A DNA stretch of 64,000 nt. Source: a virus. The DNA is taken from the IMG/VR virus record IMGVR_UViG_3300045988_117355. One strand, given 5' to 3'. The translations under genes and the position numbers were made by a program. Shown one piece after another: positions 53,032-55,108 of the stretch; position 1 is the first letter of the stretch; the number at the start of each line of letters is the position of its first letter. The notes under the pieces are model-generated. The model worked only from the letters and a program-made list of their open reading frames with translations, did not search any database and was not told the origin of the DNA.

Positions 53032-53403
53032 ATGATTTATTTTATAAGTGGACATAGAGACATAACTAGAGCTGAATTTGAATATTGGTATGTTCCAATT
53101 ATTAAAAACGCTGTAGAGCATGATAAACATGCCAGATTTGTACTAGGAGAGTGTGAAGGTGTAGATTCCATGGCTTTAGAATATTTAGATGAATTAGCTT
53201 TTAATCCTGATAGAGTGACTGTTTATTATAATGCTAAGGAAACAAAGTATTTATTTACTTGTAACTCTAAAGGATTTGATTCATATGAAGAAGCTGATCA
53301 GAACATGACTAAAGATTCAGATATAGATATTGCTTTCATTAGACCTGGCAAAGAAGATTCTTATACAGCTAAGAACATTTTAAGAAGATATTTAATGAAA
53401 TAG
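53032..53403 (+). CDS. YpsA-like SLOG-domain protein (predicted nucleotide/NAD-derivative binding)
   Basis: 123 aa; N-terminal FISGHRD...HARFVLGECEGVDSMALEYL resembles YpsA ITGYKPFELG...LISGQLGVELWAAEAA; tentative. Confidence 0.35.
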   Translation: MIYFISGHRDITRAEFEYWYVPIIKNAVEHDKHARFVLGECEGVDSMALEYLDELAFNPDRVTVYYNAKETKYLFTCNSKGFDSYEEADQNMTKDSDIDIAFIRPGKEDSYTAKNILRRYLMK

Positions 53404-53404
53404 T

Positions 53405-54028
53405 ATGAAGATAATAGGTAAATATAAAGATTATTATGACTATATCCAGGGAAAATATGGAATAGATGAAGATGTAATACTTGACAGAAGGAATTTTGTG
53501 TGGGATGTACCTGCTACTTATAAACCCTTTAACCCTGACCCATATGTTTCACACAGGTTCAGGAGTTTAAAGGAATATTCTTATGAAGTATTACTTCAAA
53601 CAGGATTTGTTCAATATTTAATAAAAGTTCAACATAATTTAGATGGAACTAACATTCCAACTTTAGTGAAGAAGTTTGAATCAGAAGTAAATATTGGATC
53701 TTGTCCTGTACTTCTAATGCCACCAGAGATCACTTATTGTATTAGTGGAGCATTTTATAGAGGGTTGAAAGATTATAATCTTGATGATATTAAATCAATT
53801 AAAAAAGCCTTTGAAAGAGGGGAAGGTGAACTTCTTAGAAGTACTAAACTTCCAATTTTAAAAGATACTTTTATTCCTAAAATTATTCCTGCGGAAGAAG
53901 TATATAATAATATTTATAATTATCTATTATACATGAAAGAGCCCAAAGTAGTAGATACGAGGACTAACAAGCAGAAAATTGAGGGAAAAGGATTTGATTA
54001 TAAAGAAAGCTTTAGAAATATAAAATGA
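53405..54028 (+). CDS. hypothetical protein
   Basis: 207 aa. Confidence 0.4.
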   Translation: MKIIGKYKDYYDYIQGKYGIDEDVILDRRNFVWDVPATYKPFNPDPYVSHRFRSLKEYSYEVLLQTGFVQYLIKVQHNLDGTNIPTLVKKFESEVNIGSCPVLLMPPEITYCISGAFYRGLKDYNLDDIKSIKKAFERGEGELLRSTKLPILKDTFIPKIIPAEEVYNNIYNYLLYMKEPKVVDTRTNKQKIEGKGFDYKESFRNIK

Positions 54029-54624
54029 AAATAGGATTATTATTTGGATCATTTGATCCATTTCATATTGGGCACTTATCAATGATTACCTCGGCATTAA
54101 ACTCTAAACAAGTTGAAGCCGTAAGGGTTGTAGTTGCATATCAAAATCCATGGAAGGAAAAATGTTTGGCAAGATTTACTGATAGATTTGATCTTACTTT
54201 AGAAGGCTGCAAGGGATTATTTAAACACGTAACAGTAACTTCTATTGAGGGAGTGCTTGCAAATATTTTACATAGACCTCCATATACTTTTGAAGTACTA
54301 GAACATATCAAGTCTTCTAATCCAGAAGATGAGTTTTGTATAATAACATCAGATGAGACATTTTCTGAAATAGAAAATTGGAAGGAAGGTAAAAAGATAT
54401 TAAAAGAAAATGATTTTCTTATAGTCCATAGAGAGGGATTCGCACAGAATTTCTATAAACCTATAGAATGTAAATCTTATACCTTTATTAAATCTGAATT
54501 TAATCTTGAAGTATCTTCAACTAAGATTAGGAATATGCTATTTAGAAAGATTAACCCAGTTCCTTTCATCTCAGCTGATCAGTATTATTATATTCAATGG
54601 AATTATTTATATGAAAAACTTTAG
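54025..54624 (+). CDS. nadD: nicotinate/nicotinamide mononucleotide adenylyltransferase (NadD-like)
   Basis: 199 aa; N-terminal LLFGSFDPFHIGHL matches NadD (H/T)xGH motif. Confidence 0.7.
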   Translation: MKIGLLFGSFDPFHIGHLSMITSALNSKQVEAVRVVVAYQNPWKEKCLARFTDRFDLTLEGCKGLFKHVTVTSIEGVLANILHRPPYTFEVLEHIKSSNPEDEFCIITSDETFSEIENWKEGKKILKENDFLIVHREGFAQNFYKPIECKSYTFIKSEFNLEVSSTKIRNMLFRKINPVPFISADQYYYIQWNYLYEKL

Positions 54625-55108
54625 TGTAGAAGTAGAAGGAAAGACCTATTGGATTTCTAGATCTATTGCAGTAGCTGGATTTATATTCTCCAAACTTGAA
54701 AATAATTGGTATATACTAGCTAATAAAAGAGGAGAGGGTGCTCCTGATTATGTAGGATGCTGGAATTGTCCTTGTGGATATTTAGACTATGACGAGACTT
54801 TATCAGAGGCTTGCTCAAGAGAAATCTTTGAAGAAACAGGAGTGTCTATAAGAGAAGATGAATTAAACTTTGAAGAGATTAATGACTCTTTGGAAAATAG
54901 ACAAAATGTTACAATTAGATTTACTAAATTTGATGATACAGGTAAACTGATTAATCAGGGACTAACATCTAGATATTCAGAAGATCAGGAAGTAGATGAT
55001 ATTAAATGGATCAGGGTTAAAAGTATTGATAACTATGATTGGGCATTTAATCATAAAGAGATTATTAAGGATTTAGCAAAATTTTATTTAAATTTTAAAT
55101 ATGAATAG
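54611..55108 (+). CDS. Nudix hydrolase (ADP-ribose pyrophosphatase-like)
   Basis: Nudix box GEGAPDYVGCWNCPCGYLDYDETLSEACSREIFEETGV; start moved to in-frame ATG 54611 (track ORF starts 54506 inside nadD). Confidence 0.65.
   Translation: MKNFSVEVEGKTYWISRSIAVAGFIFSKLENNWYILANKRGEGAPDYVGCWNCPCGYLDYDETLSEACSREIFEETGVSIREDELNFEEINDSLENRQNVTIRFTKFDDTGKLINQGLTSRYSEDQEVDDIKWIRVKSIDNYDWAFNHKEIIKDLAKFYLNFKYE

Follow-up and report, generated by a model that had tools for sequence, protein, structure and literature searches.

The DNA analyzed here is a stretch of 64,000 nucleotides (nt) from a virus, IMG/VR virus record IMGVR_UViG_3300045988_117355, which we refer to as the window and which looks like a gut phage with a low GC content of about 29%. 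Between positions 53032 and 55108 it carries, on the + strand, genes for a SLOG protein, a NadD-type adenylyltransferase, and a Nudix hydrolase, and this trio is the distal end of a larger block that also encodes a PncA-like nicotinamidase, PncB, and NadE, that is, enzymes of the Preiss-Handler route to NAD+. On balance we consider it probable that the trio forms the distal end of a set of phage genes by which the supply of NAD+ is maintained during its destruction by the host, with the Nudix and SLOG proteins acting on ADP-ribose-type molecules. This reading is supported by the linkage of SLOG to NadD and Nudix, by NADAR and Tpt1 genes as neighbors of SLOG, by SLOG fusions, by the apparently phage-only spread of the SLOG family, and by an ADP-ribosylglycohydrolase gene in the window. 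The general idea that viral SLOG, Nudix, and NADAR domains work on ADP-ribose derivatives was already published in 2022 (PMC9503650). What is new here is a SLOG family without a Pfam model that is wired to a split pair of NadD and Nudix in a Preiss-Handler block, and SLOG together with such a split pair within a Preiss-Handler block was not found in the literature searched.

The nadD and Nudix genes and the Preiss-Handler block

From 42.8 to 58.9 kb every gene lies on the + strand with practically no intergenic space, and overlaps of 1 to 23 nt are found at 22 of the 31 gene junctions of this array. A sequence-only reading of the window had listed a SLOG gene, nadD, and a Nudix gene in 53032-55108, and all three were found there on the + strand, at 53032-53403, 54025-54624, and 54611-55108, respectively. 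They are real genes, each with many diverged homologues in which conservation is focused in motifs. That reading had overlooked a fourth open reading frame (ORF), of 207 amino acids (aa), at 53405-54028, so that the segment holds four ORFs. Its view that the overlap of nadD with the Nudix gene implies translational coupling was not borne out, since with so many overlapping junctions in the array this one is ordinary genome packing and carries no specific signal. Its description of the trio as a sub-module stands only in part, in that the trio is not free-standing but is the distal end of the PncA-like/PncB/NadE/NadD block.

The 199-aa product of nadD was correctly called NadD. It matches Pfam CTP_transf_like (1.1e-13) and TIGR00482 (7.6e-26 and 91.3 bits, which is under the equivalog cut-off of 112.45), all of its top matches are NadD models, its alignment with NadD of B. 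subtilis (1kam, 3.4e-9) is full-length, and the motifs H14-I-G-H17 and S164-S-T-K-I-R169 are both present. The co-encoded PncB and NadE suggest that this adenylyltransferase may prefer nicotinate mononucleotide (NaMN) over nicotinamide mononucleotide (NMN). In a comparison with a near-identical IMG/VR contig of 109.5 kb (L014), whose SLOG protein is 98% identical to that of the window, the nt identity of nadD to L014:10994-11590 was 55-67% exactly across the gene and the protein identity was 51%, whereas the phage is otherwise 92-99% identical and the SLOG, 207-aa, and Nudix genes beside nadD are 96-99% identical to L014. From this pattern nadD looks like a swapped allele, which could have arisen through mosaicism with breakpoints at the gene ends or through a diversifying exchange of a single enzyme of the pathway.

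The mechanically called Nudix ORF starts with TTG at 54506, and the start that is conserved in homologues is the ATG at 54611 (MKNF..., with M1 and N3 invariant). From this ATG the protein is 165 aa long and the gene overlaps nadD, whose stop codon is at 54622-54624, by 14 nt. The Nudix call was confirmed by a match to Pfam NUDIX (3.3e-13, 50.2 bits with a cut-off of 21.1) and by a complete Nudix catalytic box at G56-V78, GYLDYDETLSEACSREIFEETGV (consensus GX5EX7REUXEEXGU). When a profile made from eight orthologues was compared with solved structures, the best matches were 3gz8/3gz5 (1.9e-11, full length), 2fml (1.9e-10), and 2qjt (1.6e-7), and the alignment with 3gz8 covers the domain from end to end, with the AF(N/D)H segment at its C-terminus included. 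The structures 3gz8/3gz5 are those of Shewanella NrtR, an ADP-ribose-sensing Nudix regulator, 2qjt is the Nudix domain of Francisella NadM-Nudix, and the best NCBIfam match of the protein was the bifunctional NMNAT/Nudix model (2.1e-7). These relationships support the placement of the phage protein in the ADP-ribose-binding, NadM-Nudix/NrtR-like lineage of Nudix proteins and speak for, but do not prove, a substrate of the ADP-ribose type. Unlike NrtR (3GZ5/3GZ8), its best solved sequence relative, the phage protein lacks a DNA-binding domain of the winged-helix type and its catalytic box is complete, and for these two reasons its role is probably enzymatic and not regulatory. A proline 15-16 residues past the Nudix box, a signature of ADP-ribose pyrophosphatases, was looked for in the sequence and is not there.

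The pair had also been likened to NMNAT-Nudix fusions of the NadM/NatV type. This analogy holds for the Nudix protein, whose relatives include NrtR and NadM-Nudix, and fails for the adenylyltransferase, which is NadD-type and encoded by a separate gene. Like NadM-Nudix and NatV of KVP40, the NARP2 partner of Nampt, the window combines an adenylyltransferase with a Nudix protein of the same lineage in a phage NAD+ salvage context, but here the two are encoded by genes that overlap out of frame and the partners are PncB and NadE and not Nampt.

Upstream of the trio, also on the + strand, are the genes for the other enzymes of the block. The PncA-like protein (47447-48037) has the isochorismatase fold of nicotinamidases, and its matches are just under the cut-offs: it scores 24.8 bits against Pfam Isochorismatase (2.7e-5, cut-off 27), and its best NCBIfam match is PRK11609, nicotinamidase/pyrazinamidase (1.3e-9, sub-cut-off). 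The position of this gene is kept in related phages, where the product matches PF00857. PncB, the nicotinate phosphoribosyltransferase (48346-49518), matches Pfam NAPRTase (8.2e-59) and NAPRTase_N and passes the equivalog TIGR01514 with 422 bits (cut-off 269.55). NadE, the NAD+ synthetase (about 51275-52213), matches Pfam NAD_synthase (5.2e-37) and passes TIGR00552 with 132.7 bits (cut-off 63.65), and its start is ambiguous among TTG 51236, ATG 51275, and ATG 51284. At the family level, the PncA-like protein, PncB, NadD, and NadE make up a complete Preiss-Handler route from nicotinamide through nicotinate, NaMN, and nicotinate adenine dinucleotide (NaAD) and on to NAD+. About 12 kb upstream of SLOG, within this co-directional array, is the gene for an ADP-ribosylglycohydrolase (40278-41045, + strand), which matches Pfam ADP_ribosyl_GH (PF03747) at 2.4e-24 and 87 bits (cut-off 26.2) and which, in a looser association, adds a further ADP-ribose-processing function to the phage array.

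Fold, family, and gene neighborhoods of the SLOG protein

The 53032-53403 product had been proposed to be a YpsA-like SLOG protein, and structure prediction and structural comparison agree with this. The model has a Rossmannoid three-layer alpha/beta fold and its closest structural neighbors are SLOG proteins, with a structural similarity of 11.8 to YpsA (2nx2, 115 residues aligned) and to ShosA (8zva), 10.8 to MCP, 10.7 to LOG, 10.4 to DprA, 8.6 to the ThsA SLOG domain with 3'-cyclic ADP-ribose (3'cADPR; 7uxs), and 8.0 to TRPM2. Among predicted viral structures the closest were uncharacterized proteins of Marseillevirus and Orpheovirus, followed by phage YspA, DUF2493, and DprA-like proteins. 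As modeled, the 123-aa product consists of little more than a single SLOG domain of the YpsA-like kind. It differs from B. subtilis YpsA (2NX2), to which it is 16% identical, in its length (123 aa as compared to 178 aa) and in its setting, in that YpsA is found in Firmicutes in a gpsB context and the SLOG protein is found in phages with no gpsB context. It is structurally less similar to the SLOG domain of ThsA (7UXS, type I Thoeris), which binds 3'cADPR, than to YpsA, LOG, and DprA, and unlike ThsA it has no SIR2 effector domain.

In an alignment of 43 members the invariant residues are F4, S6-G7-H8-R9, G43-x-D45, D89, T93, S96, T112, N115, and R118-R119, and G43-V-D45 is invariant in these 43 close and in 50 distant family members. 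The YpsA clade is defined by a GxD/E signature, which in B. subtilis YpsA is G53/E55 and has a predicted role in substrate binding (PMC6459960). The phage G43-V-D45 was equated with it by its position after strand 2, without a residue-level superposition, and the invariant GxD also speaks for the YpsA-like assignment.

A database search with the 123-aa protein recovered 111 homologues of about 125 aa each, all on metagenomic contigs of at most 460 kb, and the N-terminus MIYFISGHRD is kept across them. The members are small and are modeled with high confidence. An exhaustive hidden Markov model (HMM) search gave 1,398 family representatives (clustered at 50% identity), and for 775 of these E was <= 1e-10. 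On the host side, relatives were found on 2 contigs of metagenome-assembled genomes (MAGs) among 185,579 species genomes in a scan that used one exact peptide pattern and therefore had limited sensitivity. From its distribution the family appears to be essentially phage-only. In its 5' part (window 52999-53184) the SLOG gene has about 71% nt identity with nine Lak megaphages of Prevotella.

When the SLOG protein was scanned as a single sequence, nothing in Pfam, in NCBIfam, or among the PDB sequences matched it significantly. Several weak matches were set aside. Sequence searches of the PDB with the single sequence and with the profile gave only noise (PPAT with E 0.25 and Acb4 with E 0.74, the latter not interpreted), the match to Pfam DUF7381 (6.8e-4) was partial, covering 37 residues, and sub-cut-off, and the match to phrog_289, 'GTP-binding domain' (8.6e-6), was also partial and confined to the N-terminal part of a 500-position profile. 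The probable cause of the phrog_289 match is that in this family a SLOG domain is joined to a kinase or GTPase.

To examine the gene neighborhoods, 93 loci with SLOG relatives were fetched and probed with the window proteins, and the SLOG proteins fell into 19 clusters at an identity of at least 80%. NadD and Nudix genes were within about 3 kb of SLOG in 8 of the 19 clusters, and in most of these SLOG abuts one or the other. Three gene orders were found among the 8 clusters. In L001 the order is NadE-(x)-SLOG-NadD-Nudix and SLOG overlaps NadD by 4 nt; in L018, L022, L045, and L054 it is PncA-PncB-NadE-NadD-x-Nudix-SLOG and the Nudix gene overlaps SLOG by 4 nt, while in L008 and L009, which belong with this second order, about 300 nt separate the Nudix gene from the SLOG gene downstream of it. 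In the third order, that of L055, SLOG is 2 kb downstream of the Nudix gene. Identity to the corresponding window proteins is only 32-51% for the partners of SLOG in these lineages and the gene order has changed, and therefore the association of SLOG with NadD and Nudix has outlasted both rearrangement and a long period of divergence. SLOG also has NADAR genes as neighbors: in L017 such a gene is placed between NadE and SLOG, and in L013 it overlaps the start of SLOG. In a lineage of megaphages of 250-400 kb (L004, L039, and L053-L093), SLOG is 2-3 kb from genes for a NadM-like adenylyltransferase and the NAD+-dependent RNA 2'-phosphotransferase Tpt1, and the NadM-like gene is divergently oriented and its product has a GRFQ...GH motif.

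Fifty longer members of the SLOG family were scanned for fusions. A Nudix-SLOG fusion in which the Nudix box is degenerate (P0224) and a DUF4326-SLOG fusion (P0204) were found, and SLOG is also fused to KTSC, to a ClpX zinc finger, and to DUF7352. In P0181 SLOG is followed by a Tad2-like domain (PF11195, 4.9e-14, 53 bits with a cut-off of 25), which is a lead only. Two further candidates for a Tad2 fusion were rejected, since the full-length coverage of P0188 is an extension artifact and P0221 aligns over SLOG only, and neither has a Tad2-like domain. The link of SLOG to ADP-ribose that the sequence-only reading had drawn is backed by conserved gene neighborhoods and by some of the fusions, and its further idea that SLOG could sequester or process such signals is a hypothesis. 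Apart from these, P0107, on a 1.15-kb metagenomic contig, is a protein of 194 aa in which the first approximately 157 residues of PncB are joined to the last approximately 37 of SLOG, and it is either a chimera produced in assembly or a natural deletion variant in which about 4 kb, and with it most of the NAD block, has been lost.

Proposed mechanism and competing explanations

The mechanism that we favor is as follows. Host defenses with NADase activity (TIR, SIR2, and similar) would convert NAD+ to nicotinamide, ADP-ribose, and ADP-ribose-derived signals, and the Preiss-Handler enzymes of the phage would remake NAD+ from the released nicotinamide. The Nudix enzyme would hydrolyze ADP-ribose to AMP and ribose-5-phosphate, which would clear ADP-ribose and could supply phosphoribosyl pyrophosphate (PRPP) for PncB. 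The substrate or ligand of the SLOG protein would belong to the same class of molecules as that of the Nudix enzyme. We infer a role for SLOG as a hydrolase or a sponge, and of the two we favor a small glycosidase that would open or trim an ADP-ribose-containing nucleotide, for example a cyclic ADP-ribose isomer, with the Nudix enzyme finishing the reaction. A glycosidase step upstream of Nudix is favored because hydrolases are the fusion or coupling partners of the SLOG gene and because the family has invariant His and Asp residues; pure high-affinity sequestration by SLOG is a close second. In this way the trio probably helps the phage to survive bacterial defenses that destroy NAD+.

Several observations weigh against this interpretation. 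In 7 of the 19 SLOG clusters none of the probed NAD or ADP-ribose genes was found within 10 kb, which implies that the SLOG protein is independent of the salvage enzymes, and the IMG/VR loci were the best 80 of 173 and hence biased to close relatives. The Tad2-like fusion is known from one sequence only, on a contig of 1.9 kb, and a search aimed at it found no second case. The Nudix protein scores 30.5 bits against the NadM-Nudix equivalog, which has a cut-off of 418, and its ADP-ribose specificity is a prediction. The YpsA-family Pfam model was absent from the matches of all 43 aligned SLOG members at E <= 0.1, and Foldseek of the SLOG model against the PDB gave no significant match. No Pfam SLOG model reached its gathering threshold in these 43 members either, the only match being YAcAr (PF10686) in 3 of the 43 with E >= 0.02. 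Since Pfam SLOG models are not matched at threshold and Foldseek misses the fold, this is a distinct SLOG family without a sequence model. Finally, the catalytic motif of LOG and PpnN is PGGxGTxxE, and the SLOG segment at the position of this motif is S110-(G/Y)-T112-A-(Q/K)-N115, with an invariant Asn for the Glu of LOG, a correspondence that is a motif analogy only. By that analogy, Asn in place of this Glu argues against LOG-type catalysis in the SLOG family.

This last point bears directly on the explanation that SLOG is a metabolic N-glycosidase of the LOG/PpnN type, which would split the AMP made by Nudix, or NMN, into the base and a second ribose-5-phosphate and in this way maximize PRPP for PncB or return the nicotinamide of NMN to the Preiss-Handler route. 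LOG is among the close structural neighbors of the model. Against such an enzyme, besides the apparent replacement of the catalytic Glu, an alignment of the SLOG family profile with E. coli PpnN by hhalign found nothing (probability 0.1), the GxD motif points to a DprA/YpsA-type clade and not to LOG (PMC6459960), the family is also present without salvage genes nearby, and destruction of AMP would be costly with three ATP-dependent steps to follow. We consider this explanation improbable, and a little more so than that in which SLOG is a non-catalytic sponge or decoy for a TIR-made signal, such as the 3'cADPR that the SLOG domain of ThsA binds, in the manner of Tad1 and Tad2, with Nudix and NadD acting independently of it. 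An independent sponge is in our view unlikely, the structural distance of ThsA from the model and the persistence of SLOG beside NadD or Nudix being as described above.

Least probable of all, in our judgment, is that SLOG is unrelated to NAD and is a DNA-binding protein or a modulator of host cell division like DprA or YpsA, which happens to be in a common early-gene array with a Nudix protein for house-cleaning or RNA decapping. This explanation is consistent with DprA and ShosA being among the top structural matches, with the influence of YpsA on cell division (PMC6459960), with the 7 of 19 lineages that have no NAD genes nearby, with matches of MutT-type models to the Nudix protein at about 1e-6, and with the array of 16 kb being one gapless run of genes, which makes adjacency alone weak evidence. 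However, SLOG stays beside NadD or Nudix through three gene orders with partners that are 32-51% identical, the adjacency to NADAR and the fusions to Nudix and DUF4326 are independent pointers in this direction, and the best match of the Nudix profile, a full-length one, is to the ADP-ribose-binding NrtR, all of which favors action on ADP-ribose-type molecules.

Among the closest known systems are viral YpsA-like SLOG domains of the NAD+-ADPr network, for which joint action with the domains Nudix, NADAR, and DUF4326 on derivatives of ADP-ribose has been predicted (Iyer, Burroughs, Anantharaman, and Aravind, 2022, PMC9503650). Their stand-alone phage SLOG proteins co-occur with or are fused to Nudix, NADAR, and DUF4326, and all of these associations were reproduced here; the proteins show enrichment among large phages and giant viruses of the Marseillevirus group, and their predicted role is the sensing or cleavage of derivatives of ADP-ribose. 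The phage enzymes of NAD+ synthesis in that study are NadV, NadM, and NadR only, whereas here SLOG is inside a Preiss-Handler block, is coupled to NadD and a free-standing Nudix protein, and has no Pfam SLOG model. It has also been shown that RyDEP, a glycosidase encoded beside NARP1, converts 2'cADPR and 3'cADPR to ADP-ribose, which is rebuilt into NAD+ (PMC13232231). In both cases a small protein that handles ADP-ribose signals, in a predicted role here, is encoded beside phage enzymes that rebuild NAD+, and RyDEP is a direct functional precedent for what we propose for SLOG; it differs in having a RyR repeat fold instead of SLOG and in the chemistry of rebuilding.

Three phage pathways of NAD+ reconstitution have been proven, namely NARP1 and NARP2 (bioRxiv 10.1101/2024.02.11.579819) and NARP3, which consists of PnuC and NadR (PMC13464706). 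With NARP1 defined as Adps and Namat and NARP2 as Nampt and NMNAT, the block was tested for membership and no Adps/Namat, Nampt, or PnuC/NadR pair was seen in it, its PncB passing the nicotinate phosphoribosyltransferase equivalog TIGR01514 as given above. No PRPS-like, PnuC, or NadR match was found among the scanned ORFs of the 64-kb window, to which this test was confined, and a text search of the literature for 'NARP4' or for experiments on phage PncA, PncB, and NadE gave nothing relevant. Clusters of pncB, nadD, and nadE have been described in gut 'NAD-jumbo phages' (PMC11662467). Those are also gut phages with a clustered Preiss-Handler pathway, but Nudix has 0 occurrences in that report (SLOG was not searched for there) and the closest relative of the window, of about 110 kb, is not a jumbo phage.

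NAD+ depletion and ADP-ribose signaling are central to bacterial anti-phage immunity, and the phage countermeasures that have been proven are few (NARP1-3, Tad1, Tad2, and RyDEP). This locus is a concrete and widely conserved candidate for the use of the Preiss-Handler route as a phage NAD+ reconstitution pathway and a candidate case in which the viral SLOG domains predicted in 2022 would handle ADP-ribose-derived molecules together with Nudix. If SLOG is indeed a signal hydrolase or a sponge, it would be a new fold in the anti-Thoeris repertoire and would help to explain why gut phages of 100-500 kb frequently carry it. A bolder form of the proposal, which we put forward only tentatively, is that the SLOG family is a new anti-defense class that degrades or captures TIR-derived signals (2'/3'cADPR, N7-cADPR, and His-ADPR) with a fold unrelated to those of Tad1, Tad2, and RyDEP, and that it works in tandem with an ADP-ribose-type Nudix and is wired, as one unit, into a fourth NAD+ reconstitution pathway based on the Preiss-Handler route. 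Because the family is large, small-sized, and confidently modeled, binding and cleavage assays should be straightforward.

Other genes and variable segments of the window

The 207-aa ORF between SLOG and nadD had no Pfam match and matched phrog_4243 (9e-12), in which no function is assigned. Among the 93 SLOG loci it was found in L014 only, and it is a lineage-specific insert between SLOG and nadD. Its family has 18 homologues in which N- and C-terminal motifs are conserved (MKIIxKYKDYYDYxxGxYGID and PILKD...IPAEE...RTxKxKIxxxGFDxxxSFRNxK, respectively) and the middle is variable; the AlphaFold2 model, with a predicted local distance difference test (pLDDT) score of 60, was too poor for fold assignment. 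Immediately upstream of SLOG on the + strand are a 98-aa ORF (52733-53029) that belongs to no family and a small radical-SAM-like ORF of 174 aa (52206-52730). The latter has weak matches only (HxsC-like and phrog_31524) and is a divergent cassette with 59% nt identity to L014 amid flanks of 92-99%, and its 5' end has about 82-84% nt identity with an HxsC-like gene region of crAss001-type phages.

The segment 49511-51294 is a variable insertion slot within the NAD block. It holds an AAA ATPase gene (49508-50575, + strand) followed by two small ORFs, between PncB and NadE, and is absent in L014, where PncB is directly followed by NadE; of the loci L001, L002, and L003, only L002 has the AAA ATPase gene. 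Downstream of the trio, a gene for a ferritin-like protein (Pfam Ferritin; 55101-55679, + strand) overlaps the Nudix stop by 8 nt. This protein is better conserved than its neighbors, being 85% identical to its counterparts in L001-L003, as compared to 57-67% for SLOG, NadD, and Nudix.

Farther upstream, on the + strand at 42795-45253, there are four adjacent paralogous ORFs of 135, 131, 148, and 267 aa, all of which start with MCL(I/V/T) and have motifs such as 'DI(I/T)CYK', 'GVIH(S/T)F', and 'YECIIPKG' in common, and the run is interrupted by an RNase H gene (43568-44002). Judging from the N-terminal Cys they are possibly a family of N-terminal nucleophile enzymes. At 36016-37842 (+ strand) is the gene for an SPFH/Band 7 protein of 608 aa whose C-terminal region resembles flotillin, and a Band_7 gene is also found near SLOG in the unrelated locus L012.

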